From Laetmonice hystrix (taxonomy: Eukaryota): a DNA stretch of 64,000 nucleotides. Shown piece after piece: positions 3,001-50,165 of the stretch. Location: positions 25,546,001 through 25,610,000 of the forward strand of contig OZ249436.1 in the NCBI GenBank assembly GCA_965235115.1, given 5' to 3'. The notes below the pieces were generated by a model. It had not been told where the DNA came from. It saw only the letters and a program-made list of their open reading frames with translations, and made no database searches. Both the position numbers and the translations under genes were made by a program. Each line of letters opens with the position of its first letter. Position 1 is the first letter of the stretch.

Positions 3001-6000
3001 CCCAGCCTAAAGCGATGTTGCAATTAATTTACAATTAACAAGATGCACTAGTAATCCGATCCAAGCCTAATTACGTCATTGCTAGTTTCATAACCAAATC
3101 TCACAGAAAATACCCCACCCGGGCACATAACCTGAAAATATTCAACTTTTATCTCCAATGTATCCCTGTGCACCTAGTAGCACCCAAGCGGGCCCAATTT
3201 TGACATTCCAACACAAATACCGCAAATAGCCGCCTAATGGCACAAAAAACTTTCTACCCCGTTGCAAGTCACATTAGCTTGCTGCTTGTCGTAAAAAATG
3301 GTGCAGACCATTTCTAAAGTCACAGTACCCCACTCCCGGCCTAATATTACGTTTCAGTATCCATATACGCTGCAAGCGGCAGGAACTCGAATACAGGCCT
3401 AAAAGTAACCCCAGTCTAGCAATATCATACTCCCATGCCATATACGAGCTTGTAATTATCTTTAATTAATGGGCTCCGCAGCACCAACCCACTGCATTAA
3501 CATTTGTTTAACAGCTTAACGCACCTTGTAAAATTTGTTCAAGTGCGTAAAAATGCGTGTCCACCTCCACATACTTTAAAAATCACTATACCCACCCAGC
3601 GACATCAACTCTAATACACGCCTAAAAGGAACTTCACTGTCCCATTTGATTCTCCAGCACGTATAGGATGTTTCAAGTAACATTCATCCACGGTCTGGCC
3701 CAATAACGTGCAACAAGGCATAGTAAGTCAATGCGAGCTCGCATGTCAAACCTAACCCGCCCCCCAGCACATGAGCTGAAAATATTCAAATAGCTTGAAA
3801 ACTAGAATATAGCTTTGCTTAATACCATTATACCATCAACTCGCATTACAGGCCTAATACGAAGATCCCAGCCTAAAACGAGTTTCCAATTAATTTAAAG
3901 TTAACAAGATGCACTAATAATCGATTCCAAGCCTAATTAGGCCATTGCTAGTTGGATAACAAAATCTCATACAAAATACACCCTCCCGGCAGATGACCTG
4001 AGAATATTCAACTCTTATGTCCGATATATCCCTGTCCGCTTAGTAGCACCCAGCCGGGCCCCCATTTTGACATTGCAACACCAATACAGCAAGTGCCCAG
4101 CTAACAGCACAAATAACAGGATTCAGGGCTTCCTACCACGTTACAAGTCACAATAGATTGCTGCCTGTCGTAAAAATATACCAGACCATTTTAAAAAGTC
4201 ACAGAACCCCAATCCGGCCCTAATATGTCACTCCCAGTACCAATAGACGCTGGAAGCACCATCAACTGAAATTCAGGCCTAGAACCCACCTCTCTCTACT
4301 AATATCATGCACCTAGTCCGTATACGAGGTTGTAATTTACTTTAATCAACGGGCTGCGCCGCAGCAACCCACTCTGGTCTTTGCAATCTTTTTCAATATG
4401 CGTTAACATTTGTGACCAGCTCAACGCGCCTTGTAAAATTTTTCAAAGTGCGTAAAAGTGTGTGTCCACCCTGACACGCTTTCCAAACCACTATACCCAC
4501 CGAGCGACATCCACTCAAATACAGGCTTCGACCGATCCTCACTGTGCCAATAATCCGCCACAAGGCAAATTCAGTCAATGCAAGATGGAAAATCGAATGT
4601 CACACCTAATGCTTCCCCCCCCCCAGCACGTTAACTGAAAATAATCAACTAGCTTGAAAACTAGAATATAGCTTTGTTTAGCTAACAATCTACTCTCCCA
4701 GCGCCATCAACTCGCATACAGGCGTAAAAGCAAACGCACTGCCCCATATAATGCTCCCAGCCTAAAACGATGTTGCAATTAATTTAAAATTAACAAGATG
4801 CACTAGTCATCCGATCCAAGCCTAATTACGTCATTGCTAGTTTCATAACCAAATCTCACAGAAAATACCCCACCCGGGCACATAACCTGAAAATATTCAA
4901 CTTTTATCTCCAATGTATCCCTGTGCACCTAGTAGCACCCAAGCGAGCCCAATTTTGACATTCCAACACAAATGCCGCAAATACCCGCCTAATGGCACAA
5001 AAAACTTTCTACCCCGTTGCAAGTCACATTAGCTTGCTGCTTGTCGTAAAAAATGGTGCAGACCATTTCTAAAGTCACAGTACCCCACTCCCGGCCTAAT
5101 ATTACGTTTGAGTATCCATATACGCTGCAAGCGGCAGGAACTCGAATACAGGCCTAAAAGTAACCCCAGTCTAGCAATATCATACTCCCATGCCATATAC
5201 GAGCTTGTAATTATCTTTAATTAATGGGCTCCGCAGCACCAACCCACTGCATTAACATTTGTTTACCAGCTTAACGCACCTTGTAAAATTTTTTCAAGTG
5301 CGTAAAAATGCGTGTCCACCTCCACATACTTTAAAAATCACTATACCCACCCAGCGACATCCACTCTAATACACGCCTAAAAGGAACTTCACTGTCCCAT
5401 TTGATTCTCCAGCCCGTATAGGATGTTTCAAGTAACATTCATCCACGGTCTGGCCCAATAACGTGCAACAAGGCATAGTAAGTCAATGCGAGCTCGCATG
5501 TCAAACCTAACCCGCCCCCCAGCACATGAGCTGAAAATATTCAAATAGCTTGAAAACTAGAATATAGCTTTGCTTAATACCATTATACCATCAACTCGCA
5601 TTACAGGCCTAATGCGAAGCTCCCAGCCTAAAACGAGTTTCCAATTAATTTAAAGTTAACAAGATGCACTAATAATCGATTCCAAGCCTAATTAGGCCAT
5701 TGCTAGTTGGATAACCAAATCTCATACAAAATACACCCTCCCGGCAGATGACCTGAGAATATTCAACTCTTATGTCCGATATATCCCTGTCCACTTAGTA
5801 GCACCCAGCCGGGCCCCCATTTTGACATTGCAACACCAATACAGCAAGTGCCCAGCTAACAGCACAAATAACAGGATTCAGGGCTTCCTACCACGTTACA
5901 AGTCACAATAGATTGCTGCCTGTCGTAAAAATATACCAGACCATTTTAAAAAGTCACAGAACCCCAATCCGGCCCTAATATGTCACTCCCAGTACCAATA

Positions 6001-8509
6001 GACGCTGGAAGCACCATCAACTGAAATTCAGGCCTAGAACCCACCTCTCTCTACCAATATCATGCACCTAGTCCGTATACGAGGTTGTAATTTACTTTAA
6101 TCAACGGGCTGCGCCGCAGCAACCCACTCTGGTCTTTGCAATCTTTTTCAATATGCGTTAACATTTGTGACCAGCTCAACGCGCCTTGTAAAATTTTTCA
6201 AAGTGCGTAAAAGTGTGTGTCCACCCCGACACGCTTTCCAAACCACTATACCCACCGAGCGACATCCACTCAAATACAGGCTTCGACCGATCCTCACTGT
6301 GCCAATAATCCGCCACAAGGCAAATTCAGTCAATGCAAGCTGGAAAATCGAATGTCACACCTAATGCTTCCCCCCCCAGCACGTTAACTGAAAATAATCA
6401 ACTAGCTTGAAAACTAGAATATAGCTTTGTTTAGCTAACAATCTACTCTCCCAGCGCCATCAACTCGCATACAGGCGTAAAAGCAAACGCACTGCCCCAT
6501 ATAATGCTCCCAGCCTAAAACGATGTTGCAATTAATTTAAAATTAACAAGATGCACTAGTAATCCGATCCAAGCTTAATTACGTCATTGCTAGTTTCATA
6601 ATCAAATCTCACAGAAAATACCCCACCCGGGCAGATAACCTGAAAATATTCAACTTTTATCTCCAATGTATCCCTGTGCACCTAGTAGCACACAAGCGGG
6701 CCCAATTTGACATTCCAACACAAATACCGCAAATACCCGCCTAATGGCACAAAAAACTTTCTACCCCGTTGCAAGTCACATTAGCTTGCTGCTTGTCGTA
6801 AAAAATGGTGCAGACCATTTCTAAAGTCACAGTATCCCACTCGCGGCCTAATATTACGTTTGAGTATCCATATACGCTGCAAGCGGCAGGAACTCGAATA
6901 CAGGCCTAAAAGTAACCCCAGTCTAGCAATATCATACTCCCATGCCATATACGAGCTTGTAATTATCTTTAATTAATGGGCTCCGCAGCACCAACCCACT
7001 CCATTAACATTTGTTTACCAGCTTAGCGCACCTTGTAAAATTTGTTCAAGTGCGTAAAAATGCGTGTCCACCTCCACATACTTTAAAAATCACTATACCC
7101 ACCCAGCGACATCCACTCTAATACACGCCTAAAAGGAACTTCACTGTCCCATTTGATTCTCCAGCACGTATAGGATGTTTCAAGTAACATTCATCCACGG
7201 TCTGGCCCAATAACGTGCAACAAGGCATAGTAAGTCAATGCGAGCTCGCATGTCAAACCTAACCCGCCCCCCCACCACATGAGCTGAAAATATTCAAATA
7301 GCTTGAAAACTAGAATATAGCTTTGCTTAATACCATTATACCATCAACTCGCATTACAGGCCTAATGCGAAGCTCCCAGCCTAAAACGAGTTTCCAATTA
7401 ATTTAAAGTTAACAAGATGCACTAATAATCGATTCCAAGCCTAATTAGGTAATTGCTAGTTGGATAACCAAATCTCATACAAAATACACCCTCCCGGCAG
7501 ATGACCTGAGAATATTCAACTCTTATGTCCGATATATCCCTGTCCGCTTAGTAGCACCCAGCCGGGCCCCCATTTTGACATTGCAACACCAATACAGCAA
7601 GTGCCCAGCTAACAGCACAAATAACAGGATTCAGGGCTTCCTACCACGTTACAAGTCACAATAGATTGCTGCCTGTCGTAAAAATATACCAGACCATTTT
7701 AAAAAGTCACAGAACCCCAATCCGGCCCTAATATGGCACTCCCAGTACCAATAGACGCTGGAAGCACCATCAACTGAAATTCAGGCCTAGAACCCACCTC
7801 TCTCTACCAATATCATGCACCTAGTCCGTATACGAGGTTGTAATTTACTTTAATCAACGGGCTGCGCCGCAGCAACCCACTCTGGTCTTTGCAATCTTTT
7901 TCAATATGCGTTAACATTTGTGACCAGCTCAACGCGCCTTGTAAAATTTTTCAAAGTGCGTAAAAGTGTGTGTCCACCCCGACACGCTTTCCAAACCACT
8001 ATACCCACCGAGCGACATCCACTCAAATACAGGCTTCGACCGATCCTCACTGTGCCAATAATCCGCCACAAGGCAAATTCAGTCAATGCAAGCTGGAAAA
8101 TCGAATGTCAAACCTAATGCTCCCCCCCCCCCAGCACGTTAACTGAAAATAATCAACTAGCTTGAAAACTAGAATATAGCTTTGTTTAGCTAACAATCTA
8201 CTCTCCCAGCGCCATCAACTCGCATACAGGCGTAAAAGCAAACGCACTGCCCCATATAATGCTCCCAGCCTAAAGCGATGTTGCAATTAATTTAAAATTA
8301 ACAAGATGCACTAGTAATCCGATCCAAGCCTAATTACGTCATTGCTAGTTTCATAACCAAATCTCACAGAAAATACCCCACCCGGGCACATAACCTGAAA
8401 ATATTCAACTTTTATCTCCAATGTATCCCTGTGCACCTAGTAGCACCCAAGCGGGCCCAATTTTGACATTCCAACACAAATACCGCAAATAGCCGCCTAA
8501 TGGCACAAA
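1..8509. repeat. Satellite array, ~1754-bp dimeric unit (monomer A ~906 bp + monomer B ~848 bp), segment 1
   Basis: TTAACATTTG monomer starts at 1743 (A), 2649 (B) and 3497 (A) give the 1754-bp period. A and B are colinear but clearly diverged, while equivalent monomers in different units differ by only a few SNPs. Confidence 0.98.
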
Positions 8510-8810
8510 TCCGAGCTCGGCGCCAAAGAGCCGGGATCATTTATGGAGGAGAAACGAGGGGTTTGCGTAGGTATATTAGTATAGGTACTCGCACATATGT
8601 ATCTAGGACCCATGTCGTGTGCTCAGTATGTATTGTCGAGGTAATGTAAACAATAGCTGTACTCCCGTTAACCACCATCTTGGTTCTCGCCTCTCGCGCG
8701 GTCTGGGTCGGAAATGACGAAGGCGACTTGGGAGACGATCCGGAGGGTATAAATACAACCGAGCAGAAGAGTCGAGTTCTCTACCTTTGGAAGCTTCGTG
8801 GAAATCAGAC
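8510..8810 (+). repeat. Element 1 repeat A1 (copy A2 at 13989-14289)
   Basis: 301-bp direct repeat TCCGAGCTCGG...GAAATCAGAC; the two copies look identical by eye. Confidence 0.97.
8748..8755 (+). promoter_or_regulatory. Candidate TATA box (TATAAATA) in repeat A of element 1
   Basis: GGGTATAAATAC lies near the 3' end of A1, where a + strand transcript of such an element would be expected to start. Motif match only. Confidence 0.4.
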
Positions 8811-10370
8811 TGATTCGTTCCCCACACATCGGGTGAGTTCGTTCTATGGTTGGGACTTCGTTTCAAGTATACGGTGGAACGTGGTTTGTCGACTGTTTCT
8901 TATATTTGCCTTGTGTTTGACACCTATATGCAGGTGTTATGTCTAAAACAGTTCCAGTTATTCGTCTTTCGAGGCTGTATTATAGACCGGTACCCAGTAT
9001 TTATGTGTGTCTGAAATAGTCACATGCAGTGTTGCAGCACGCACAGTCGCTTCCACGTGGTCGACCTGACCTTTGTGGTTCGGGCTCGGCTAGCCTACTT
9101 GAAGCTCCTGGTAGACAATTTGTGTTACGAGTTTGTAGTTATTTTAGTTCACCACACATTGAGGGCGACTGACGACGTCGGCGGTGCTATGTTGTGTAAT
9201 TTTGTGTACGTATTTGTCCCAGAATGGTAGTGGGGGTACGATAATTTCAGTTTTGTTTTACCGTGGTTTACTCCGTGTTGAGTAGGGTAATAGCGTTCGG
9301 TACCAAGGTTGAGCTTATAGGCCTACAACGGTTTGTCCTGCCACGTGGTGTATCATGGTGGGGGTAGGCTCGTAAAAGTGTGAGGTAGGCCTACATTGTC
9401 GTGGAGTTGGTGTTTTTCGCTAGTCCTCACTATGTGGGGTTGAAGGTTGGTAGAAGTTATGTTGTGTCCTTCGGTGGTTTGGGACTTGACCAGTGAACTG
9501 CTGTAACTTGACACGCCGGGTGTTCTTTAATTTATCTAGTCCCGTCTTATATAGGCGTTTACTGCTGCTCCTAATTGCAACAGTTGGTATGGTTTTCGAA
9601 GTGCCCTCCCTAGATTATGTTAAATACAGTGTTTATCGCTTGGCGGCAATGCTTCTTGCCGTTTGCTTGGGGTGCTTTTTGGATGTGGGTATGCTGCGCT
9701 GGTATTCGAGCGGTATGTGGTGCTGTTATTCGGGTAGAAGTATTTATTTACGGTGGACAGATTAATCTGGATGTATTGGCACCAGCTTTAACCTGATAAG
9801 CTTTGGAGATGGTTTGATGAATGTAATTTTACCTGACTTGTTGGACTCTAATTTAGTGTCGCTGATAATTTTCTTTCTCTTGTAGCCAACGAGTGGCTTA
9901 TCCCTGATATTATATCTGGATCTGGACAGGTGCCCCTCACTGTTCAGTGTGGTTCATTGATGCAGTCGCATGGTAGGGGGATTTCGTCAATGTTATTTTC
10001 TATGTAGTAGTTTGGTATTCACTCCTTGTGGTTGCTTTGTTTTGAGTCTATCCATTTGTAAGTATTTGATTTTGTATTTTTGAGTTTAGTTGTCCCCTGA
10101 ACCTTACTAGGCAGACTACCTGTCCCTCTGTTTCAGGATTTACATCATTTAATCTAATTGCCCCTGATTAATAGGCGTGTAGATTTAGCTACCACCTCAT
10201 CTGAAAGTTTTTGTCGTTTAAGTATTTTGCCAATAGTTTGTAGACCCACCCCACCCCACCCTTCCTCGTGTTAGTGAGGTGTGTGTGTGTGTTGGAGGAG
10301 GGGTGTGGGGGGGGTGTTGTGTTTACGAATAACGGGGCTCTGCTGATGTGGGCTTAATGTGGTGTAACAT

Positions 10371-11090
10371 ACGGTGTGTGGTCCCTTCGGTTCCGCTTTC
10401 CCTTGTGGTTGTGTTAACTTGGTTGGGGGATGGGGCCGTGTTCCGTGGGGTTGACGGTGTGTGGTCCCTTCGGTTCCGCTTTCCCTTGTGGTTGTGTTAA
10501 CTTGGTTGGGGGATGGGGCCGTGTTCCGTGGGGTTGACGGTGTGTGGTCCCTTCGGTTCCGCCTTCCCTTGTGGTTGTGTTAACTTGGTTGGGGGATGGG
10601 GCCGTGTTCCGTGGGGTTGACGGTGTGTGGTCCCTTCGGTTCCGCTTTCCCTTGTGGTTGTGTTAACTTGGTTGGGGGATGGGGCCGTGTTCCGTGGGGT
10701 TGACGGTGTGTGGTCCCTTCGGTTCCGCTTTCCCTTGTGGTTGTGTTAACTTGGTTGGGGGATGGGGCCGTGTTCCGTGGGGTTGACGGTGTGTGGTCCC
10801 TTCGGTTCCGCCTTCCCTTGTGGTTGTGTTAACTTGGTTGGGGGATGGGGCCGTGTTCCGTGGGGTTGACGGTGTGTGGTCCCTTCGGTTCCGCCTTCCC
10901 TTGTGGTTGTGTTAACTTGGTTAGGGGATGGGGCCGTGTTCCGTGGGGTTGACGGTGTGTGGTCCCTTCGGTTCCGCCTTCCCTTGTGGTTGTGTTAACT
11001 TGGTTGGGGGGTGGTGTCGTGTTCCGTGGGGTTCTGTCCTCCCTTGATAGGATTACCTTGGGGTCGACGGTGTGGTCCCTTCGGTTCCGT
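10371..11090. repeat. 83-bp G/T-rich minisatellite inside element 1 (7 full copies plus a degenerate tail)
   Basis: ACGGTGTGTGGTCCC starts at 10371, 10454, 10537, 10620, 10703, 10786, 10869 and 10952. Confidence 0.96.
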
Positions 11091-11948
11091 CATCCCCGTT
11101 ATATTACAAGTTGTTTTACGGCAGATGTGCCTGGTTTCCGCAGGCTGCCACATCCTTTGGTGCATTGTACTTCTAGTCCCCATGATGGGTGATCGATGGG
11201 TACCTATGTATATGGATGCGAGGGGATGTCCCCTCCGCTCTGCCTTTTTCGAGGATTAGAGCTGAATCTTTATTTTCTTGTTTTAAAGTTGTTTAAGAAG
11301 TCATTTTAGGTCGGTAGGTTGTTAGTAAGTCAGGTCACTTCTACTGTATTTTATTGTGTACTATGTGTTTACGCTTTTTGGATCTGCCTCGCCTTCGGGC
11401 TATGGTGGGACCGTCTGCACTTAAATATCTTGTTCATTAACTTTGTAAATTATCTTGTCAAATTTTCAATGTACTATTTTGTTAATTTGGTAATATTAGG
11501 TATCTTCGATAAAATTATTAACAATGTTAGTCAGGGTTGTCACCTTAGTTAAATGTTGCCTATTTAGTTTTTACTCTGTGTTGAGGGCTATAATTATATT
11601 ATATATTTATCGTCATTTCGTCTTATAATTATATTATATATTTATCGTCATTTCGTCTAACTATATAATTTCAATGTTAACTATAAAGGTAATAAGTATT
11701 ATCGTATTTTTGGATGATTAATTTGATTTGTCATAATGTATAAGGGGAATTTATGCAATTTTTTGATATTGAGTTGATTGTATTTGTCATAGGGCAGTAA
11801 CTATTATTCCTCTGCCAGATGTTTCTTCGGTCTTTTGTTATTTTCCATTTTAGGTGGACGACAGGCTGAGCATATGGCTTTGGTGCATGGGTCGTGGGAC
11901 GTATTCTATATTTACACATTCATTTGTACTGATAATGAGCTGATGGAA

Positions 11949-12952
11949 GGCTGAGTATGTGTCTTTGGTAGACTTTGGAGGTTTACTGATGTGGGTAAGG
12001 TCAATTCCCCGTGTTTTGAACCTGTGATGTTGTTCGAAGGCTGAGTGTTGATTTATATTATTCAAGGTTCGGTATGGTTCAGAGGTTGTTTGGTTTAGAG
12101 GTTCCTTTAGCTACCATCTCTATGGAATGTGTTTCTTGTAGGTATGTGGAATACTTGCCGCGTAGAGGCTTAACCCATGTTTGTGGTTGGTCTCGGATAT
12201 CAAGGCCTTTAACTTGTTCATGTGGTTATTATGTGTATAGGCTTAACCCATGTTTGTGGTTGGTCTCGGATATCAAGGCCTTTAACTTGTTCATATGATT
12301 CTGTGGTTATTATGTGTATGTGATGTGGTTATGTGGTTATTATGTGTGTGTATATACGGAGATCAGTTATCTTTTTAAGTTTTGGGAAACCTCCCGGGCC
12401 CAAGAGGTCCGTTGTGGATGTACTCCCAAGCGTGAAGCGTTTCCACGGTTTTTGACTACGACTTTCATGGTTCCTGATACGTTTGGCTGAGTATGTGTCT
12501 TCGGTTGACTTTGGAGGTTTACTGATGTGGGTAAGTCAATTCCCCGTGTTTTGAACCTGTGATGTTGTTCGAAGGGCTGAGTGTCGAATTATATTATTCA
12601 AGGTTCGGTATGGTTCAGAGGTTGTTTTGGTTTAGATGTTCCTTTAGCTACCATCTCTATGGAATGTATTTCTTGTAGGTATGTGGAATACTTGCCGCGT
12701 ATAGGCTTAACCCATGTTTGTGGTTGGTCTCGGATATCAAGGCATTTAACTTGTTCATGTGATCCTGTGGTTATTATGTGTATGTGATGTGGTTATTATG
12801 TGTATGTGTATATACGGAGATCAGTTATCTTTTTTAAGTTTTGGGAAACCTCCCGGGCCCAAGAGATCCGATGTTGGATGTATGTTGGACTCCCAAGCGT
12901 GAACCGATTCCACGGTTCTTGACTACGACTTTCATGGTTCCTGCTACGTTTG
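11949..12952. repeat. ~0.5-kb imperfect tandem duplication inside element 1
   Basis: GGCTGAGTATGTGTCTT... starts at ~11949 and ~12486, and both copies end ...GACTACGACTTTCATGGTTCCTG.TACGTTTG. The first copy has an extra ~70-bp internal duplication. Confidence 0.9.
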
Positions 12953-13712
12953 CGCGTCCTTCACCTCCAGTATTTGTTATTCCAGTAGTCTTCCCTTTTT
13001 ACGTTACCTTATGCTTACGTTACGATCCGTGTATCATTAAGTGTTGGGCTCTGTAGCTGTCTGGTGGGTACTAGTTTGGTACCGTACAAAGTGGTAGGTA
13101 AGTGCTCGGGGGCGGCTAGATAGACGACGCGTTGAAGGAGGTGGATGAAGTAAGCTTTAATTGGAATGTTGTCCGGTGCAGTGACGAGGCAGCTTTGTCG
13201 CCCGGTTCAGTGACGAGGAAGTTTGGATTGTTGCCCGGTTCGGTTATTTATTATTAAATATTTATAGTATGGTCCCAGGTGGTAGAATGGGATACCGTCA
13301 CGTTTTCCCACCAGTTTCTCAGTCTATCACAATTTCCCAGGATAAGTAAGTATGGTGTAATGGAGTTTAATGGTGGGTGCTTCCTGTTTGGTCAAGCAGC
13401 TGGGTGTTATAACTTGTTAACCTGACGTTATGATGTTGACTCCAAGGATCTAAGGTCTTCTTCCGTATGTCTTATGATTCAAAGCCTTGATATGCTTGTT
13501 GCAGGTACACCAGATGCCCCTAATCGGACTGGATGATGATGGGTTCCGCTATCCGTTCGTTCAGGCCAGGAGATGATCTGTGCCTAATTTCCAAGTTGTG
13601 TCTGACGGTGATGCGTAGATTTGGCTCCTGGGGCGGTGTCAGCGGGTCGCGTTGGGAGTCTTTTCCCCTGCCTTCTTTGGTGGCTCCAGCTTCATCTTCG
13701 ATTCCGCTTAGT

Positions 13713-13985
13713 GGCATTGTCTCCACCTAATAAGGCATTACTATACCTATATCTATGTATTTTGGACTATGTATTTCCATATAATGTATTATCGGTTATG
13801 TATTATATTACTATAGTATTGTTATGTTGTTACATATATCAGTTACACCTTATATAGATTTATCATTTACCATATTATAATGTTTGTAGAGTCCCCCATT
13901 GCATGGGGTGATCAACGGGTTACTATGTATGTGAATAAAATGTAACCTACAGCAAAGCATTCCCGTTCTCCGAGTTTGACTGCAT
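13713..13985 (+). repeat. Element 1 repeat B1 (copy B2 at 14452-14724)
   Basis: 273-bp direct repeat GGCATTGTCTCC...GAGTTTGACTGCAT, with AATAAA about 50 bp before its end (13934; 14673 in B2). Confidence 0.97.
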
Positions 13986-14724
13986 AAATCCGAGCTCGGC
14001 GCCAAAGAGCCGGGATCATTTATGGAGGAGAAACGAGGGGTTTGCGTAGGTATATTAGTATAGGTACTCGCACATATGTATCTAGGACCCATGTCGTGTG
14101 CTCAGTATGTATTGTCGAGGTAATGTAAACAATAGCTGTACTCCCGTTAACCACCATCTTGGTTCTCGCCTCTCGCGCGGTCTGGGTCGGAAATGACGAA
14201 GGCGACTTGGGAGACGATCCGGAGGGTATAAATACAACCGAGCAGAAGAGTCGAGTTCTCTACCTTTGGAAGCTTCGTGGAAATCAGACGGCCCACCTCC
14301 GCCCCGACTCCTCCATGTTTCAACGCCTTTGCCTGGTTTAAATTATGTTTTTATGTAGACCTACTGGGTTTGGCTTGGGGTCAGCATGGCTGCCCGAGTT
14401 CTTTTCTCAGTTTGGTTGGATAGGGATGTATTTGGGTTCCTGGATGTTGTGGGCATTGTCTCCACCTAATAAGGCATTACTATACCTATATCTATGTATT
14501 TTGGACTATGTATTTCCATATAATGTATTATCGGTTATGTATTATATTACTATAGTATTGTTATGTTGTTACATATATCAGTTACACCTTATATAGATTT
14601 ATCATTTACCATATTATAATGTTTGTAGAGTCCCCCATTGCATGGGGTGATCAACGGGTTACTATGTATGTGAATAAAATGTAACCTACAGCAAAGCATT
14701 CCCGTTCTCCGAGTTTGACTGCAT

Positions 14725-17700
14725 AAAAAACTTTCTACCCCGTTGCAAGTCACATTAGCTTGCTGCTTGTCGTAAAAAATGGTGCAGACCATTTCTAAAG
14801 TCACAGTACCCCACTCCCGGCCTAATATTACGTTTCAGTATCCATATACGCTGCAAGCGGCAGGAACTCGAATACAGGCCTAAAAGTAACCCCAGTCTAG
14901 CAATATCATACTCCCATGCCATATACGAGCTTGTAATTATCTTTAATTAATGGGCTCCGCAGCACCAACCCACTGCATTAACATTTGTTTAACAGCTTAA
15001 CGCACCTTGTAAAATTTGTTCAAGTGCGTAAAAATGCGTGTGCACCTCCACATACTTTAGAAATCACTATACCCACCCAGCGACATCCACTCTAATACAC
15101 GCCTAAAAGGAACTTCACTGTCCCATTTGATTCTCCAGCACGTATAGGATGTTTCAAGTAACATTCATCCACGGTCTGGCCCAATAACGTGCAACAAGGC
15201 ATAGTAAGTCAATGCGAGCTCGCATGTCAAACCTAACCCGCCCCCCAGCACATGAGCTGAAAATATTCAAATAGCTTGAAAACTAGAATATAGCTTTGCT
15301 TAATACCATTATACCATCAACTCGCATTACAGGCCTAATGCGAAGCTCCCAGCCTAAAACGAGTTTCCAATTAATTTAAAGTTAACAAGATGCACTAATA
15401 ATCGATTCCAAGCCTAATTAGGCCATTGCTAGTTGGATAACAAAATCTCATACAAAATACACCCTCCCGGCAGATGACCTGAGAATATTCAACTCTTATG
15501 TCCGATATATCCCTGTCCGCTTAGTAGCACCCAGCCGGGCCCCCATTTTGACATTGCAACACCAATACAGCAAGTGCCCAGCTAACAGCACAAATAACAG
15601 GATTCAGGGCTTCCTACCACGTTACAAGTCACAATAGATTGCTGCCTGTCGTAAAAATATACCAGACCATTTTAAAAAGTCACAGAACCCCAATCCGGCC
15701 CTAGTATGTCACTCCCAGTACCAATAGACGCTGGAAGCACCATCAACTGAAATTCAGGCCTAGAACCCACCTCTCTCTACCAATATCATGCACCTAGTCC
15801 GTATACGAGGTTGTAATTTACTTTAATCAACGGGCTGCGCCGCAGCAACCCACTCTGGTCTTTGCAATCTTTTTCAATATGCGTTAACATTTGTGACCAG
15901 CTCAACGCGCCTTGTAAAATTTTTCAAAGTGCGTAAAAGTGTGTGTCCACCCCGACACGCTTTCCAAACCACTATACCCACTGAGCGACATCCACTCAAA
16001 TACAGGCTTCGACCGATCCTCACTGTGCCAATAATCCGCCACAAGGCAAATTCAGTCAATGCAAGCTGGAAAATCGAATGTCAAACCTAATGCTCCCCCC
16101 CCCCCAGCACGTTAACTGAAAATAATCAACTAGCTTGAAAACTAGAATATAGCTTTGTTTAGCTAACAATCTACTCTCCCAGCGCCATCAACTCGCATAC
16201 AGGCGTAAAAGCAAACGCACTGCCCCATATAATGCTCCCAGCCTAAAACGATGTTGCAATTAATTTAAAATTAACAAGATGCACTAGTCATCCGATCCAA
16301 GCCTAATTACGTCATTGCTAGTTTCATAACCAAATCTCACAGAAAATACCCCACCCGGGCACATAACCTGAAAATATTCAACTTTTATCTCCAATGTATC
16401 CCTGTGCACCTAGTAGCACCCAAGCGAGCCCAATTTTGACATTCCAACACAAATGCCGCAAATACCCGCCTAATGGCACAAAAAACTTTCTACCCCGTTG
16501 CAAGTCACATTAGCTTGCTGCTTGTCGTAAAAAATGGTGCAGACCATTTCTAAAGTCACAGTACCCCACTCCCGGCCTAATATTACGTTTGAGTATCCAT
16601 ATACGCTGCAAGCGGCAGGAACTCGAATACAGGCCTAAAAGTAACCCCAGTCTAGCAATATCATACTCCCATGCCATATACGAGCTTGTAATTATCTTTA
16701 ATTAATGGGCTCCGCAGCACCAACCCACTGCATTAACATTTGTTTACCAGCTTAACGCACCTTGTAAAATTTTTTCAAGTGCGTAAAAATGCGTGTCCAC
16801 CTCCACATACTTTAAAAATCACTATACCCACCCAGCGACATCCACTCTAATACACGCCTAAAAGGAACTTCACTGTCCCATTTGATTCTCCAGCCCGTAT
16901 AGGATGTTTCAAGTAACATTCATCCACGGTCTGGCCCAATAACGTGCAACAAGGCATAGTAAGTCAATGCGAGCTCGCATGTCAAACCTAACCCGCCCCC
17001 CAGCACATGAGCTGAAAATATTCAAATAGCTTGAAAACTAGAATATAGCTTTGCTTAATACCATTATACCATCAACTCGCATTACAGGCCTAATGCGAAG
17101 CTCCCAGCCTAAAACGAGTTTCCAATTAATTTAAAGTTAACAAGATGCACTAATAATCGATTCCAAGCCTAATTAGGCCATTGCTAGTTGGATAACAAAA
17201 TCTCATACAAAATACACCCTCCCGGCAGATGACCTGAGAATATTCAACTCTTATGTCCGATATATCCCTGTCCGCTTAGTAGCACCCAGCCGGGCCCCCA
17301 TTTTGACATTGCAACACCAATACAGCAAGTGCCCAGCTAACAGCACAAATAACAGGATTCAGGGCTTCCTACCACGTTACAAGTCACAATAGATTGCTGC
17401 CTGTCGTAAAAATATACCAGACCATTTTAAAAAGTCACAGAACCCCAATCCGGCCCTAGTATGTCACTCCCAGTACCAATAGACGCTGGAAGCACCATCA
17501 ACTGAAATTCAGGCCTAGAACCCACCTCTCTCTACCAATATCATGCACCTAGTCCGTATACGAGGTTGTAATTTACTTTAATCAACGGGCTGCGCCGCAG
17601 CAACCCACTCTGGTCTTTGCAATCTTTTTCAATATGCGTTAACATTTGTGACCAGCTCAACGCGCCTTGTAAAATTTTTCAAAGTGCGTAAAAGTGTGTG

Positions 17701-29335: not shown

Positions 29336-29907
29336 AGGGAAATGTGAGTGTTCGACTCCACCACTAGAATTTTCAAAATATTTTTATGGGGGATAGCCTT
29401 TGTCCTTAGGAGTACAAAGAAACAAAAAAAATCATATGTCACCGAATTAGATTTTTTTATACAGGCCTCCGTAAAAAATGGGTCCTTACTATAGGTTTCA
29501 ATGGGGAAAACAGGAATTTTTAGACATTTTGTCTAATAGTTAAAAAATGACCACCAATTTTCTCCTGAAACTCGGTGACAAGATAAAGTGGATCAAGACT
29601 AATAGTTTAAAACAAAAAAAATTGGGGGTCACCGAATCAACAAAAAAGTTACAGCCTGCCAAACAGTCAGTGCCTTGGTAAAACACGGGTCTTAACTATA
29701 GCATTCAATGGAGTAGACAGGTTCTGGCACACAGTTTGGTTCATTTTTTAAAAAATACTACTGATTTCCAGATCAAACTAGTTGACTGCATAAATAAGCC
29801 AAACAGTTTTCTTTTAAAGCTCACTACGCGGCGCTTTGAATACTCACATTTTCCCCGTGGTACCAACGCGGCTCACTAGGTGGCGCTTTAAACACTCACA
29901 TTTCCCT
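29336..29907. mobile_element. 572-bp non-autonomous DNA transposon (MITE), Kolobok-like
   Basis: TTAA is duplicated (29332-29335 and 29908-29911; single in other monomers). Perfect 17-bp TIR AGGGAAATGTGAGTGTT / AACACTCACATTTCCCT. Purine-purine 5' termini with a TTAA TSD fit Kolobok rather than piggyBac. Confidence 0.85.
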
Positions 29908-30202: not shown

Positions 30203-30424
30203 GGCACGTTGTAACCGAAGGTTCAACGAATTTTATGCAGGAAAACACGAGAGGCCTACTGTCTGAATCAGTGCCGTCATGGCAACAACTTTCTGGGTCA
30301 TGTGTTGAATAATTATGTCACGCCGAATCCCATCATGCATCATGCCGCAACCGGTTGACGACCGTGACGTTGTCCTTGAATCTTCCCACTTTCTTCAAGA
30401 CACGCAGGGTAACGGTTTTCAGTG
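30203..30424 (+). repeat. Element 2 repeat A1 (copy A2 at 36738-36959)
   Basis: 222-bp direct repeat GGCACGTTGTAACC...GGTTTTCAGTG. Confidence 0.97.
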
Positions 30425-31354
30425 GCAACGGTCGCATTTTATCACTCTCAATCGTCTTAATTTTAGTTCATCCGAGGTTGAGTTTCTAGTCACGTCTTTA
30501 TAAAATGGTCACCCGTCTTTTGTACTTGCTTTCATTTTCTAGGCATAGTCTGTTGGCCTAGGTTTAGCCATCTTTATATCTCCTAGGAGTTAGGCCTAGG
30601 CTAAGCAAAATGGCGTCTGGGTACGTCTTGATTCTTACTCTTAGTGACAGCATTCATCTTCGTCGTCCTGTCACAGATACCCAAGGAGTTTAGTTCTAGA
30701 GTGAATCCGAATTTAACGTCACCGTTAGTTCTTTACTATCGGGGTAGATCTAGATCTAGTGAATGTGGCTGTAGTTTTGTTATAGACTAGATCTAGTTGA
30801 TTGATAATGATACTGATAGTGATAGACACTAGTCACTAGGCTAGTCAGGCTAGCCGGTCTAACTGGATCGACTTGTCTTATGTCATGAATTTGATACTTA
30901 GCCTGAGCCTACATTAGCGTTTAATCTAACGACGTTAGTTATGACTATATCTACTACTACTAGTTTAGAATCTAGTAACCTCGTTAGTCACTTATTGACT
31001 TAGTGTTTGACGTTGGCTCTGAGGACGGGTGGCTACGTGTCGTGTCTATTAAAATGCCATTGAATTTTGTCGTGCGGGAGTAGATCTACAAGAGTGACCG
31101 TTTTGTTTTCATCCATCATTCTGATTGGTTATTTCCTATTGCCAATGTTTCCCTACACATGTAAATTATTGTATAAATGCTACCTTAACCTGATATATTA
31201 CTACATTAAATTCATTCTATTGGCCACGGTTTCTTTATACATCATTATTGATACATTACAATTTACAGCATATTTGTGAATGATGATTGATATGTATCCC
31301 GTATATTGTACATTACGGGGCCTGTTTAATTAATCTGGCTACGTGTGTTGTATA

Positions 31355-33660
31355 TATTTTTTATTGCTACATTATACACCTTATGATTGCTATATTTAGA
31401 CCTTATTGGGAGACCATTTGGTTCTCTTTATTATTGGTCACATTTTATTACGATTGATATTAATGGGATTTAGATCCCTTATTTTTGTGTTGGGCTCTGT
31501 CATCGAGAGACTATACTGCTTTCTCTTTGATCAGTAGTTCCAATTTTCTTTTCAGTCTTTATATGTTTATTATTGCTACAGTATACACCTTATTATTGCA
31601 GACCTTATTGGGAGACCGTTTGGTTCTCTTCATTATTGGTCACATTTTATTATTTTTGATATTAATGGGATTTATATCCCGTATATTTTTGCGTTGGGCT
31701 CTGTCATCGAGAGACTATACTGTTTTCTCTTTGATCAGTAGTTCCAATTTTCTTTTCAGTCTTTATATGTTTATTATTGCTACATTATACACCTTATTAC
31801 TGCTATAGACCTTATCGGGAGACCGTTTGGTTCTCTTCATTATTGGTCACATTTTATTATGATTGATAAAAATGGGATTTACCGGTATATCCCGTATTTT
31901 TGTGTTGGGCTCTGTCATCGAGAGACTATCATGTTTTCTCTTTGATCAGTAGTTCCAATTTTCTTTTCAGTCTTTATATGTTTATTATTGCTACATTATA
32001 CACCTTATTATTGCTATAGACCTTATTGGGAGACCGTTTGGTTCTCTTCATTATTGGTCACATTTTATTATGATTGATATTAATGGGATTTATATCCCGT
32101 ATATATTTTTGCGTTGGGCTCTGTCATCGAGAGACTATACTGTTTTCTCTTTGATCAGTAGTTCCAATTTTCTTTCCAGTCTTTATATGTTTGTTATTGC
32201 TACATTATACACCTTATTATTGCTATAGACCTTATTGGGAGACCGTTTGGTTCTCTTCATTATTGGTCACATTTTATTATGATTGATATTAATGGGATTT
32301 ATATCCCGTATTTTTGTGTTGGGCTCTGTCATCGAGAGACTATCATGTTTTCTCTTTGATCAGCAGTTCAAATTTTCTTTTCATTCTTTATATGTTTGTT
32401 ATTGCTACATTATACACCTTATTATTGCTATAGACCTTATTGGGAGACCGTTTGGTTCTCTTCATTATTGTTCACATTTTATTATGATTGATTGATATTA
32501 ATGGGATTTATATCCCGCATATATATTTTTGTGTTGGGCTCTGTCATCGAGAGACTATCATATTTTCTCTTTGATCAGTAGTTCCAATTTTCTTTTCAGT
32601 CTTTATATTCTTTATTATTGCTATATTATACACCTTATTAAATATTGCTATATTTAGACCTTATTGGGAGACCGTTTGGTTCTCTTCATTATTGGTCACA
32701 TTTTATTATGATTGATTGATATTAATGGGATTTATATCCCGCATATATATTTTTGTGTTGGGCTCTGTCATCGAGAGACTATCATATTTTCTCTTTGATC
32801 AGTAGTTCCAATTTTCTTTTCAGTCTTTATATTTTTATTATTGCTATATTATACACCTTATTATTGCTATATTTAGACCTTATTGGGAGACCGTTTGGTT
32901 CTCTTCATTATTGGTCACATTTTATTATGATTGATTGATATTAATGGGATTTATATCCCGCATATATATTTTTGTGTTGGACTCTGTCATAGAGAGACTA
33001 TAATGTTTTCTCTTTGATCAGTAGTTCCAGTTTTCTTTTCAGTCTTTATATTTTTATTATCGCTACATTATACACCTTATTATTGCTATATTTAGACCTT
33101 ATTGGGAGACCGTTTGGTTCTCTTCATTATTGGTCACATTTTATTATTATGATTGGAATTAATGGGATTTATATCCCGTATATATTTTTGTGTTGGGCTC
33201 TGTCATTGAGAGACTATCATATTTTCTCTTTGATCAGCAGTTCCAATTTTCTTTTTAGTCTTTATATTTTTATTATTGCTACATTATACACATTATTAAT
33301 GCTGTATTTAGACCTTATTGGGAGACCGTTTGGTTCTCTTCATTATTGGTCACATTTTATTATGATTGATATTAATGGGATTTATATCCCGTATTTTGTG
33401 TTGGGCTCTGTCATCAAGAGACTATCATGTTTTCTCTTTGATCAGTAGTTCCAACTTTCTATTCAGTCTTTATATTATTATTATGGCTACATTATACACT
33501 TTGTTATTGCTATATTTAGACCTTATTGGGAGACCGTTTGGTTCTCTTCATTATTGGTCACATTTGATTATGATTGATATTAATGGGATTTATATCTCGT
33601 ATATATTTTTGTGTTGGGCTCTGTCATCGGGAAACTATCGGGTTTTCTCTTTGATCAGCA
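31355..33660. repeat. T-rich ~205-225-bp tandem array (about 11 copies) inside element 2
   Basis: TTTTG(T/C)GTTGGGCTCTGTCATCGAGAGACTAT (or a close variant) recurs at ~31483, 31687, 31899, 32107, 32312, 32527, 32752, 32971, 33186, 33395 and 33607. Confidence 0.95.
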
Positions 33661-33661
33661 G

Positions 33662-34480
33662 CTTATGCTGGATTATCACCCCCTTCTCATGTCTGGCTCA
33701 CATTTAGTTTACCCGATTGATTTTGTTTCAATACTTTGTTTTTGCTTTGATGATACAATATATTATTCTATTGGCCTGATATGACATTGAGAGATCGTTG
33801 GGCTTATGCGAGATTAGCAGCCTTTCTCATGTCTGGCTCACATTTTAGCCAATTGATTTTTGTTTCAATACTTTGTGTTTGCTTCGGCGATACAATATAT
33901 TATTGCTTTTGTCCTGATATGACATTAAGAGATCGTTGGGCTTATCCTGGATTAGCAGCCCTTCTCTGAGTTCTCATGTCTGGCTCACATTTACCCAATT
34001 GATTTTGTTTCAATACTTTGTGTTTGCTTCGGCGATACAATATATTATTGCTATTGGCCTGATATGACATTAAGAGATCGTTGGCCTTATGCTGGATTAG
34101 CAGCCCCTTCTCATGTCTGGCTCACATTTACCCAATTGATTTTGTTTCAATACTTTGTGTTTGCTTCGGCGATACAATATATTATTGCTATTGCCCTGAT
34201 ATGACATTAAGAGATCGTTGGGCTTATGCTGGATTAGCGGCCCCTTCTTATGTCTGGCTCACATTTACCCAATTGATTTGTTTCAATTCATATTATATTA
34301 CCTCAGTTGATGTGATATATTCACGATACATAGACTCTTTTATTGAGATATTATACTTTGTCTCTGCTTCAGTGATTCAATATATTTACTTGATATTGGC
34401 CTCATATGACATTGACTGAGGGATCGTTGGGCTTATGCTAAATTAGCAGCCCTTCTCATGTCTGGCTCATATTTACCCAA
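33662..34480. repeat. ~140-bp tandem array (about 5 copies plus a degenerate one) inside element 2
   Basis: GCTTATGCTGGATTAGCAGCC..TTCTCATGTCTGGCTCACATTT recurs at ~33662, 33802, 33940, 34085, 34222 and 34431. Confidence 0.9.
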
Positions 34481-36174
34481 CTGATTTATTTCACTTCATA
34501 CTGTATTACTTTACTTCATTACTGTTGATGTGACATGTACACGATACATAGTCTTTTTATTGAGATTATATAATATACTTTGTCTTTGCTTCAGTGATGC
34601 AATATTATATTTACTTGATATTGGCCTCATATGACATACCAGTCCCAAATTTTCAGTCTCTTAATATTTATATTATTATAATTTTTGCTTCAGTGATACA
34701 ACATTATAGTTAATTGATATAGGCCACTGCATATATGCCAATGCCAATGAAAGATCGTTGGGATTCGACTGTCCTGAGTTTGCAGCCCATCTAGGATCTG
34801 GCTCACATTTAACCATTTTGTTTACGTTGCAATTACATCGAGTGATGTGATGCGTTCACGACATAAATGTTGTATTCACTGTTAGGCTCAGCCATTGAGA
34901 GACCATCGAGTGTTCTGTTGGATCAGTGCGACAGCAGTTCAAATGTTCAGTCTCTTTTACATTTATTTTACTTTTTGCTGCTTCAGAGATACATTATTAT
35001 AATATTAACAATATTTTGTTGGCCGTATATGCCATTGGGAGATCGTGGGTTTCCCCTGGATTAGCAGCCTATCAGTATCACATGTGTGCCTAACATTTGA
35101 TTTACGTCCAATTTATATTATATTACATTTATGTTATTATACATATGTATTATTATTACATGTAAACCATGGTTTTTCGCCACTGATTGACATATCATCT
35201 AGGCTTATCTCTATCATCAAATTCGTAGATATCAGTTTAATTTCATAATCGTATATTACGTAACGATTTACATTATGCTAAATGAATTATTCAGTATAAT
35301 ATTATACTTGCCCTATACGGCCAATGTTATACACAACATGAATTATTCAATCTGGGCGTTTTGTCATTGACTTTGGCTCTACAATGAGCCCTTCAATTCA
35401 ATCAACTTCAATGAGCGGGTTGTTACCCTGGCCATGTTCCCTTGTACGGCTTCTGTTCATGATGGCGACTACACGATGGAGGTCCAAGCCCAAGCTCCCA
35501 CGGAATTCTCCGATCTCCATGCCCCCATGCAAGAGGGAGCGTCTCATTATGGGTCAAGCGGAACCGGGTCGGCCTCAACTATTTCGCAAGGATTCGCGGC
35601 TGGTGTCCAGACGGTTCCCATTTACGACTGTTCAGGGAGGTTGGAGATAGGAGTTCGGCCCGGCCTGAGCCTCGACTGGGTACTCCAAGTCTCTTCCAGA
35701 CCATTCTTGCTGTGGCCAGATGCAGTGGTGCAAGAGCAGATCTACGTGTGTGATCTGTATGATCATATAATATTAGCAAAGAATGCTTTTCACCAACAAT
35801 CGCGGTGTCTCCTTGAAACTCCGTATGGACGCTTCAGTTAAAATGGGATTTGGAGCGGTTTTTCGGATCTGACTAGATAATAGGCCTAGTCGGTGTCCAT
35901 CTTCGTTGGATCGACAAGATGTTTTTATTGGAGCTATACCTCCATTCTTTTTGCAGTTGCCCTGTGTGGGGAATATGTTTGAAACTCCATGGTTGAGTTT
36001 CATACCATAATATTTGTGACACAATCATTAACTCAACTTGACCTTCAAAGAATCAAGGAAACAAGGGAAAGCGGATGATTTGCATCGGTTGCAGAATAGG
36101 CGTTTCATTTCCCTGCATCCCTGCACTGTGTGTTGTGGGTGGCTCCACCTGCTTGTTCCAAGCAGGTTAGTGGC

Positions 36175-36734
36175 CTGCGTCGCCACTCACATTTAACTGT
36201 TCAACACATTCTTAACCCTTTAACACATATTTTTTAACGATAATGTTCCTATTTTTAGATTTGGGAACATAGACATTAATGGTTTCGAGACGGTGCAGTG
36301 TGGACTCACTGTCAAGAGTAATACCAATTCATGGACATTTAGTTATTGGTACCGTTAGTTGTAATTTTCTACCATATCTATTCCCATGACAATGCAGTGT
36401 GGGCTCATTGTCAAAAATGGGACATTAATGGTTTCGAGACGGTGCAGTGAGGGCTCACTGTCAAGAGTAATACCAATTCATGGACATTTACTTATTGTTA
36501 CCGTTAGTTGTAATTTTCTACCATATCTATTCCCATGACAATGCAGTGTGGGCTCATTGTCAAGAATGGGATGGTGACACCCTTTCTGTTCAGAAATAAC
36601 CTAATTGTCCTAAACCTTTAATTAATGTTGGACACGTGCAGTGTGGGCTCACTGTCCAACTTATATTTTTAATATTATAATAAACGGGTGTTGCCCAAAT
36701 AACAACATTATCTGTTTCCGAGTGTTGCCTGCAT
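36175..36734 (+). repeat. Element 2 repeat B1 (copy B2 at 37006-37565), with an internal ~149-bp tandem duplication
   Basis: 560-bp direct repeat CTGCGTCGCCAC...GTTGCCTGCAT. GACATTAATGGTTTCGAG occurs at 36272 and 36421; AATAAA at 36679. Confidence 0.97.
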
Positions 36735-37565
36735 AAAGGCACGTTGTAACCGAAGGTTCAACGAATTTTATGCAGGAAAACACGAGAGGCCTACTGTCTG
36801 AATCAGTGCCGTCATGGCAACAACTTTCTGGGTCATGTGTTGAATAATTATGTCACGCCGAATCCCATCATGCATCATGCCGCAACCGGTTGACGACCGT
36901 GACGTTGTCCTTGAATCTTCCCACTTTCTTCAAGACACGCAGGGTAACGGTTTTCAGTGCCTCCACCGCCCCACCTGCCGCCTTAGGCCATCTGTTTGAT
37001 GGGCTCTGCGTCGCCACTCACATTTAACTGTTCAACACATTCTTAACCCTTTAACACATATTTTTTAACGATAATGTTCCTATTTTTAGATTTGGGAACA
37101 TAGACATTAATGGTTTCGAGACGGTGCAGTGTGGACTCACTGTCAAGAGTAATACCAATTCATGGACATTTACTTATTGTTACCGTTAGTTGTAATTTTC
37201 TACCATATCTATTCCCATGACAATGCAGTGTGGGCTCATTGTCAAAAATGGGACATTAATGGTTTCGAGACGGTGCAGTGAGGGCTCACTGTCAAGAGTA
37301 ATACCAATTCATGGACATTTACTTATTGTTACCGTTAGTTGTAATTTTCTACCATATCTATTCCCATGACAATGCAGTGTGGGCTCATTGTCAAGAATGG
37401 GATGGTGACACCCTTTCTGTTCAGAAATAACCTAATTGTCCTAAACCTTTAATTAATGTTGGACACGTGCAGTGTGGGCTCACTGTCCAACTTATATTTT
37501 TAATATTATAATAAACGGGTGTTGCCCAAATAACAACATTATCTGTTTCCGAGTGTTGCCTGCAT

Positions 37566-43517: not shown

Positions 43518-44614
43518 TAATCCTGCACCAAGTTTTGGGAACTAAAAACTTAGTTTTTTCAACATCGGCGCATTAAAACCCTTCTCGTGACGCGGAATCT
43601 CAGTCAATTACTTAAGGAATGGTAGCAAATAAAACTAGAGACTGCAGGCTATTTATCAGTCTAAAAATTACACCAGGTTGCTAAGTTATAATTTCTACAG
43701 AGGTGTTTGAAAAACGTATAAGTTTCTCAAAAAGTCGCAAAACTCATGACCTTTCGAGATTCGAGCTTTTGTCACGCAAAATCTGTCCCGACGACCTGTA
43801 CAAAAAAGTACCCAGAATTATTCCCCACATCGTAAGGTCTCCATGGATACCTTTCTTTTAGCGAGATTCCTTATAGTTTTGAATACAGCGAGCTTTGTTT
43901 GGAAATTTATAAGTTCCCAAAACTTTGATAATGACGTTAAATATCACAATAGACAGCCAGGCTCCAATCTAAGCTGTGTAGGATCAGAGGCCTACAGTGA
44001 TGTTTACGGAGGTATTATAATGCTATAATTTTCTGAGACTATCTACTGACCTTCGAAGTCTCTGCTTCTGTAGTATTTTAATCCATCTTTTAATAAAACG
44101 AGAGCTAGACAGCAAAATAGTGCAGTCTACGTTAGTCGTCACGACTGTGCCGCACGTCCTATCTATGACGTCACAGCCACAGTTGACTTAACGAGGCACG
44201 CACTGTCTTTTTGTCAGTGAAACATTGTAATATTATGTATCAAAATACGTAGTTAACTATTCTATGATGTCACAAGTGACAATGAAAGCACAAACAGATC
44301 GAACCCAGGCTATAAAATTGTAGCCAATGCAGATTATGAGGACGTTATCGCCGGCCAGTCTCTGACCCAAGCGATGACAACGAACGTGTTGACGGCTCTA
44401 CCAGCCCAAGACACCCGGCCAGTACACTGGTTTTTGAGCAGCAGCGCTCTAAAATAACACCTTCTAACTATAAAATAATGATTTACTTTTATAACATTCG
44501 GGTTTGCATAAATATTAAGACTAACTGCCCATACTATTATCACCTAGAACGATATAATAACTAGACACGTTGTGGCGATACCACAATTGATCCCATCCCC
44601 GGGGAGTCACGTGA

Positions 44615-45095
44615 TATATGACATGTTCTGAGTAGGGTAAACTATGGCTCGATCTTGCACAGTTAATGACCTATAAGCTTTAGAAGATGCCAATGACGTA
44701 ATTATGAGGTGACACGTCATACTATGTAATGAATCTTGGTCTCAAATGAAAGAGCATGTAGGCTATATGACTTCCTATTACTGTTTAATAGTAACTATAG
44801 CTCTAACTTCTACCATTTACAAGTTATAGCCCTGAGAAAAATACCTAAAAAAATGTCAAGTGAAAGATCATATATGACTTCCTATTAGGGTTAAATGGTA
44901 ACCATTGCTCTATCTTGAATGGTTTAGGATTTAGAAACCTTCGAAGATGTCAATGGCATCATTATGACATAATAATGATACATTACATCATAAATCTTGG
45001 TGTCAATTGAAAGAGCATACAATGTATATGACTTCCTATTCCTGTTCAATAGTAACCATGGCTCCATCTTGCACCGTTTACAAGTTATAGGCTGA
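44615..45095. repeat. Degenerate core tandem repeats of the HINE (about 4 copies, ~110-155-bp spacing)
   Basis: ATATGACTTCCTATT...AATAGTAAC.ATGGCTC.ATCTTG-like motif at ~44616, 44765, 44872 and 45026; one copy at ~47863 in the inner element. Confidence 0.7.
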
Positions 45096-46631: not shown

Positions 46632-46838
46632 CAGGTATATCGCCCATGATAACTTAAACTCCACGAAATTTGGTGGAAAGGAAAGATTCATGGCCCTGAC
46701 CTTATCCCTAACCCCTAACCCCTAACCCCAGTTCCTACACCTCCCCAAAACATATCCCTACCCTACCCCTATCCCTGATATTAACCCTAACCCCTGCCCA
46801 AACATTTCGTGGAAAGTTATCATGGGGGATAGAACCTG
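46632..46838. mobile_element. 207-bp MITE with a 4-bp AATA TSD and a CCCTAA-like interior
   Basis: AATA at 46628-46631 and 46839-46842. ~40-bp imperfect TIR CAGGT..TATC.CCCATGATAACTT...CCACGAAAT. The empty site GTTCTG-AATA-CACAATCA is visible in the paralogous region at ~48971-48988. Confidence 0.88.
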
Positions 46839-50028: not shown

Positions 50029-50165
50029 TAATACAGAAGACGAAACCACACAATTTCTAAATCCCATCCCCTCCGTAGGGGATGGGATAATTAACATGTT
50101 CTGGGGTTTCAAGTGGGGGTTGAACTGGATGACCTCCCAAGTTCCCAATTTACGGTGCAGGACTA

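Follow-up and report, generated by a model that had tools for sequence, protein, structure and literature searches.

The split arrangement of direct repeats written A1-B1A2-B2 defines the Ngaro, PAT and VIPER retroelements (PMC9210276, PMC4157794, PMC6681497, PMC13465315). Ngaro elements of Cafeteria and Xenopus are described as A1-[open reading frames (ORFs)]-B1A2B2, with repeats that are 100% identical (236 and 152 bp in DIRS-53_XT) and with solo AB units (PMC9210276, PMC8547959). In Trypanosoma cruzi, VIPER has the order A1..B1-A2-B2 and SIRE consists of A2, ~30 bp and B2 (PMC6681497). The Toc elements carry A1-B1-A2-B2 repeats and belong to the PAT group (PMC4157794), and TOC1 of Chlamydomonas reinhardtii, about 6 kb in length, is a non-autonomous member of the tyrosine-recombinase (DIRS) order and a partner of TOC3 (PMC5613634, PMC9940879, bioRxiv 2022.08.29.505686). 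DIRS-1-like elements have a trinucleotide circle junction (AAA, AAT, AAC and AAG in the published table) and no target duplication (PMC3266345, PMC7192593); in the integration model for the order, the trinucleotide of the circle junction recombines with the same genomic trinucleotide, which ends up on both sides of the insert (PMC7192593, PMC3266345). We analysed a stretch of 64,000 bp from Laetmonice hystrix (contig OZ249436.1, positions 25,546,001 to 25,610,000; hereafter the window, in whose numbering all coordinates are given) and in it an insertion at 8510-14724, hereafter element 1, which is very probably a non-autonomous, TOC1-like split-direct-repeat retroelement of the DIRS order with a helper of the Ngaro or PAT type.

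Element 1 is arranged as A1-body-B1-AAA-A2-spacer-B2 and all of its repeats are direct. Repeat alignment of A1 (8510-8810, + strand) with A2 (13989-14289, +) gave 0/301 mismatches and of B1 (13713-13985, +) with B2 (14452-14724, +) 0/273, in agreement with the original prediction, made from the letters of the window, of a 301-bp A and a 273-bp B each present twice without differences. The repeat borders are exact because the letters adjoining each repeat differ. The 162-bp spacer predicted between A2 and B2 lies at 14290-14451 (+) and is C-rich at its start (14293-14305). The body (8811-13712, +) is non-coding, T/G-rich on the + strand and has a splice-donor-like GTGAGT at 8833; the internal tandem repeats noticed earlier were recovered in it as an array of 83 bp x 8.0 with 98% matches (10371-11033), a 35-bp repeat present twice (11589-11658) and a tandem duplication of a ~0.5-kb block with 437/466 aligned letters identical (11949-12952). 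A TATAAA at 8748-8753, near the 3' end of A1, suggests a putative promoter. B1 ends in TGCAT, and the B repeats contain AATAAA at 13934 and 14673, respectively.

The junctions link this architecture to a mode of integration. Element 1 interrupts a 1.75-kb satellite cleanly, and junction comparison places the same AAA core at three positions: at the left end on the target side, preceded by satellite GCAC and followed by A1 (8507-8509, +), at the internal joint between GCAT of B1 and the start of A2 (13986-13988, +), which is the predicted circle junction GCAT|AAA, and at the right end between GCAT of B2 and the continuing satellite unit (14725-14727, +). When the left and right flanks are joined they match intact satellite units at 120/120 positions, with no target loss and no true target duplication, and the empty site and the element's own B|A junction each contain AAA a single time. 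Since the C remains on the target arm and the T remains with B, the crossover is placed within AAA. This is the mark of integration from a circle by a presumed tyrosine recombinase (YR), and it fits the trinucleotide-core model. The identical repeats and the intact empty site are the basis on which the insertion may be called recent.

No Pfam family was found in any of the six frames of element 1 read through stops (0 in 6/6 frames, E<=0.1), and the same six-frame analysis gave no Gag, reverse transcriptase/RNase H (RT/RH), YR, SGNH or methyltransferase (MT) ORF. A separate ORF-wise Pfam search of 36 ORFs (27 of the 45 listed for element 1, 5 of the second element described below and 4 from an insertion at 43.5-50.2 kb) returned six weak matches, all below cut-off. 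The longest ORF starting with ATG has 83 aa, consistent with the earlier statement that none exceeds ~90 aa, and the longest stop-to-stop frame, of 102 aa, is on the minus strand and extends into the 83-bp array. A coding region may, as the original prediction proposed, have been lost or replaced; no remnant of one was found in these frames. Element 1 thus has the identical repeat pairs, with A1 at the 5' side and B1-A2-B2 at the 3' side, and the single core at both ends and the junction but once in the empty site, that characterise split-direct-repeat YR retroelements, and lacks the coding sets of autonomous Ngaro (Gag, RT/RH and YR ORFs, no methyltransferase) and autonomous PAT/TOC elements (Gag, RT/RH/MT and YR ORFs). 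The layout, the trinucleotide-core junctions and the multi-copy status described below support the original interpretation, and the cited layouts, together with the standing of TOC1 as a non-autonomous element of the DIRS order, support the proposed likeness to PAT/Ngaro and TOC1. The repeats themselves do not assign element 1 to Ngaro or PAT because split repeats evolved more than once (PMC4157794).

TOC1 and element 1 are alike in size and in being of non-autonomous DIRS-order type, a comparison made by description only and not of sequences, and they differ in the animal host and the apparent 7-bp target of element 1. A spacer and an internal tandem array also belong to the anatomy of TOC1. 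Ngaro elements share the layout, identical repeats of similar size and, in the family as described, solo AB units; however, the truncated Ngaros described lose only ORF1, whereas element 1 is without Gag, RT/RH, recombinase or SGNH ORFs. SIRE resembles the A-spacer-B units that the element 1 family may include, but VIPER is kinetoplastid-restricted and coding, whereas the full-length form of element 1 is itself non-coding. DIRS-1-like elements also integrate at a trinucleotide junction, but have inverted repeats and an internal complementary region where element 1 has direct repeats, and with no inverted pair of at least 40 bp in the 64,000-bp window element 1 is not a member of that group. 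The split-repeat class and TOC1 being known, element 1 adds a new gene-less example. In the literature searched (Repbase, Dfam and most subscription papers lay outside the search), non-autonomous DIRS status was mentioned for TOC1 only, and large non-autonomous examples from animals seem little described there.

Copies of the family were sought in contigs of four runs (X1-X4) from one sample in one study, possibly the source sample and hence not independent, in which 0.69, 0.66, 0.63 and 0.26 of the words of element 1 were present. Mapping covered 12490-14451 (1,962/6,215 bases of element 1), observations on contigs are drawn from the best-supported among those listed per table, and contigs cannot reveal transcript starts, ends or strand. 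The four runs had 613, 335, 555 and 31 contigs on this part, about half or more of them <99% alike. Main body contigs reached depths of 1,872-2,230 in X1 and X2, with the same body and 0-3 differences, and variant contigs ~20-90, a contrast that suggests tens of copies of the family, although such depth does not measure copy number. Coverage in the four runs extended to all 30 bins of the mapped part and included pieces across B1|A2; the joint between the ~0.5-kb duplicate copies (12952 to 12490) was found in contigs of each run as well. Some contigs have their end or start precisely at the internal AAA core (X2 record 15, X4 records 29 and 30), in two of these the match stops at 13988 and other sequence follows (X2 record 15, X4 record 29), and others start exactly at 13713 or 13986. 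One listed flank beyond 13988 is not host satellite and the family therefore also inserts elsewhere. Within this one sample and 12490-14451, the family is multi-copy with fixed termini, and the many variant copies speak against the single-copy state that the original prediction had named as grounds for abandoning it.

The median depth of the spacer was 4.6, 2.7, 3.5 and 7.7 times that of the body in the four runs (summed contig depth is no copy number, which holds for all depth ratios given here). There is therefore more A/spacer/B sequence than this body explains, which could come from solo units, sister families or the helper, and spacer-bearing units do seem to outnumber the element 1 body. 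It had been proposed that A-spacer-B occurring alone elsewhere would turn element 1 into a tandem of a long and a short element, a rule that does not hold given that solo AB units occur for Ngaro and that SIRE is the A2-B2 region of VIPER. The window letter at A positions 14117, 14121 and 14193 and at B position 13914 accounts for 0-23.5% of the depth per run, yet stands in both copies of the respective repeat. In this one copy of the element, such shared minority letters may reflect ends rebuilt from a single internal template, gene conversion being also possible. In X1, window-type depth stood at ~4,000-4,400 (A), ~2,700 (spacer) and ~1,870-2,190 (main body contigs), an A:spacer:body ratio of about 2:1.3:1 that comes close to the 2:1:1 of one unit. 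One X1 contig (depth 78) joins 14279 to 13643, that is, the end of A to just upstream of a motif bordering B1; this single contig is possibly a mini-element retaining the motif, or a spacer-to-body rearrangement. Among the loose contig ends at 14283-14344, some spacer variants carry additional letters following 14316-14322, and in X2 a different sequence precedes the same spacer start; these are probably sister subfamilies.

New here is a second element of unrelated sequence that has the same layout, lies at a homologous site and shares short motifs with element 1. It occupies 30203-37565 (+), in the same orientation as element 1, at the homologous GCAC|AAA of the other satellite monomer. Its A repeats (A1 30203-30424, A2 36738-36959) are 222 bp with 0 mismatches, its B repeats (B1 36175-36734, B2 37006-37565) are 560 bp with 2 mismatches, AAA separates B1 from A2, and its spacer measures 46 bp (36960-37005). 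BLASTN found no match between the two elements below E 0.13 and tblastx composition-driven matches only. The body holds arrays of ~219 bp x 10.9 and 137 bp x 4.5, and B contains a 149-bp x 2 repeat; six-frame Pfam analysis gave two below-cut-off matches in 1/6 frames. An open frame of 156 codons (35371-35841) in the 3' body has a GC content above its surroundings, with no credible homolog among its matches; two weak ones, to repetitive proteins that have no retroelement domains (E 3.5e-5 and 8.2e-5), were taken as noise.

The joined flanks of the second element also match intact satellite at 120/120 positions. The two targets, at positions 378 and 1245 of the satellite reference unit, are aligned with each other and are its only GCA.AAA sites. 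This motif, which derives from the elements' own junction, accounts for 50 of the 2,608 AAA/TTT starts in the satellite, and under an AAA-only rule such a site would be hit with a probability of 1.9% per insertion and 3.7e-4 for both. The odds of a target longer than AAA, of the form GCAY|AAA, appear roughly even on these letters.

Three further short signals are shared by the two elements, with which, as for the target, the comparison rests on n=2. The last 22 nucleotides (nt) of B, as aligned between the elements, reach a score attained by 0/20,000 random pairs, and it is this final stretch of ~22 nt that element 1 B has in common with the second element. A 37-nt motif (13679-13715 in element 1, 36138-36174 in the second element) ends at the 5' border of B1 and is absent before B2 in both elements; with 28/37 identical letters it is the best and only such pair among 45,267,353 window pairs. 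It has the form GGTGGCTCCA-N19-TTAGTGGC with a central hairpin at 13688-13708. The C-rich 13-mer at the spacer start is identical at 11/13 positions, a value reached by 71/20,000 random pairs, and is found only after A2 in both elements; for pairing of the spacer start with the rest of the element, no partner common to both was found. In each element the + strand carries AATAAA nowhere but in B1 and B2, at a distance of 52 and 56 nt, respectively, from the end of B. Taken with the TATAAA at 8748, this favours + as the RNA strand. Among the titles and abstract starts searched (most subscription papers outside the search), none described split-repeat elements without genes from animals, the targeting of a satellite or motifs of this kind.

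Of the nine pairs of the B1-border hairpin, three are invariant, three are changed on both sides and three are unpaired in element 1. The loop is TTC on the + strand and GAA on the minus strand, on which the three open pairs are all G.A. Tandem G.A pairs stabilise d(GNA)-type loops. Such loops are described as very stable when closed by C:G, a G:C pair in that place costing ~3 kcal/mol (PMC3201870), and the closing pair is favourable in element 1 and poor in the second element. Folded as DNA, the 73-nt regions have z-scores of -2.69 and -3.47 on the minus strand and -1.74 and -2.76 on the plus strand. DIRS-1 complementary DNA (cDNA) is linear and single-stranded, with no primer determined (PMC7192593). 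That the hairpin acts in the cDNA is a reasonable but unproven idea, and less probable than not. Ribozyme and tRNA primer-site interpretations of the motif were dropped after by-eye comparison with consensus features, and Rfam reported nothing at gathering score.

On the retroelement interpretation, element 1 would depend for its movement on the RT/RNase H and recombinase supplied by an autonomous element, of Ngaro or PAT type, at another site in the genome. A + strand RNA would run from the 3' end of A1 to the poly(A) site in B2, reading through the B1 hexamer, and the internal B1|A2 junction would serve as the template for restoring the missing ends, which would yield a circle and make A1 equal to A2 and B1 to B2 again. 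The circle GCAT|AAA recombines with satellite GCAC|AAA by a crossover in AAA, as the letters at the junctions record, the enzyme presumably being a YR. More speculatively, the recombinase might read GCAY|AAA beyond the trinucleotide, which would have directed both families, unrelated as they are, to homologous positions in the satellite. The B-end motif might be the arm that the recombinase binds, and priming or strand transfer might be signalled by the hairpin at the B1 border and the C-rich start of the spacer. A possible but doubtful extension is an animal split-repeat lineage whose recombinase uses a Crypton-like 7-bp site, GCAY|AAA, so that unrelated gene-less families of 6-8 kb home to one satellite position and share only the minimal replication signals, with the hairpin on single-stranded minus cDNA (GAA triloop, G.A-paired internal loop) priming the second strand or ending a strand jump.

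Several points weigh against this account. The excess of spacer over body depth also suits independent short units, and X2 and X3 are nearly without the window letter at 14117 and 14121, the ratio seen in X1 not being reproduced there. No autonomous partner and no RT, RNase H or recombinase remnant was found in the frames analysed or in motif scans of viral and metagenome sequence. The viral contigs gave 0 matches; the metagenome gave 63 loci, 0 of them with GCATAAA <=700 bases downstream, and 6 with a repeat of at least 80 bp, none in the split layout and all taken as chance. The RNA step from A1 to B2 is proposed from sequence signals only; few AATAAA are expected from composition anyway (0.62 and 2.4), so that only their position counts, and the A repeat of the second element is without TATAAA. 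Covariation in the hairpin is not significant with two sequences (72/500 shuffles reach the same), and in the model the inner hairpin of element 1 is by itself unstable (-0.6 kcal/mol, z 0.13). The 7-bp target was seen after the fact in n=2 insertions, and chromatin could favour one position.

The alternative that survives best, though unlikely, is that element 1 combines a pair of independent Crypton-like DNA units with common termini, one long (A-body-B) and one short (A-spacer-B), of which the latter inserted at the GCAT|AAA that ends the former, with no RNA step. CryptonF-1_cRei ends in CACCG and targets CAYCG (bioRxiv 10.1101/2022.05.23.493040), and both elements of the window follow the same logic of GCAT|AAA against GCAC|AAA, in which the terminal donor motif and the target are nearly the same and a single pyrimidine may vary; units with a spacer also seem more numerous than the body, and the link to RT is a presumed one. 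Yet CryptonF-1_cRei is a DNA transposon without long split repeats, and the minority letters common to both A copies and both B copies of element 1 argue against such an origin, as does the unrelated second element with the same long-then-short order, a border motif only before B1 and a C-rich motif only after A2. Poly(A) hexamers are also confined to B, and solo AB units are expected of split-repeat elements. Less probable still is that element 1 descends from an autonomous element as a dead, decayed or chimeric relic, immobile and with repeats kept identical by gene conversion. At three places in the 3' body (13307, 13562 and 13654) this copy does carry a letter other than that of the family majority, and the body has internal duplications, but there is no coding remnant in any frame, the body recurs at high depth with 0-3 differences and the target is intact.

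Highly improbable, and largely excluded, is a long terminal repeat (LTR) element that duplicated 3 bp of its target and whose LTRs here look nested or partial. Troyka elements, known from many invertebrates, make 3-bp duplications (PMC12440569) and AAA flanks element 1 at both ends, but element 1 is bounded by A on one side and by the different repeat B on the other, its termini are neither CG..CG, as in Troyka, nor TG..CA, and AAA also stands at the internal B1|A2 joint of both elements. An assembly artefact is equally improbable, for despite the satellite context and the absence of a listed contig spanning the whole mapped stretch, 30/30 bins are covered in the four (not independent) runs by pieces that cross B1|A2 and the internal duplication joint, and the base-exact junctions recur in the second element.

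Under the preferred split-repeat retroelement interpretation, gene-less copies keep only what is needed in cis, and motifs common to unrelated bodies therefore form a short list of testable signals. The B-end motif, B1-border hairpin and C-rich spacer start are candidates for poorly understood copying steps, and bear on how reverse transcription is primed and completed in tyrosine-recombinase retrotransposons; if its role is real, the hairpin would be a first candidate for the priming signals of the split-repeat group. A target extending beyond the trinucleotide core, if true, would link these retroelements to Crypton-type site choice and explain their gathering in satellite arrays.

The host satellite extends across the window (1-64000) as a 1754-bp dimer of 866- and 888-bp monomers that are identical at 622/939 columns, with units mostly 98-99.7% alike and 43,209 bp in total excluding four insertions. 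Rfam and ARAGORN gave 0 matches in the window and the satellite is therefore not a known RNA-gene array. Its strand skew is strong, C/A-rich on +, and the bodies of both split-repeat elements are oppositely T/G-biased. Two other insertions interrupt it. A 572-bp non-coding insertion at a duplicated TTAA (29336-29907) has 17-bp terminal inverted repeats starting AGGG, and we take its purine-starting termini and TTAA to suggest a Kolobok-type rather than piggyBac-type element. A 6.6-kb insertion at a duplicated TA (43518-50165) ends in inverted repeats that match imperfectly and has further repeats nested inside it (0.9 kb at 95%); with no Pfam match in its 4 longest frames, it looks like a non-autonomous DNA transposon carrying other repeats. 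Within the satellite itself, 63040-63685 is a 325-bp tandem duplication with 4 extra letters at the joint.

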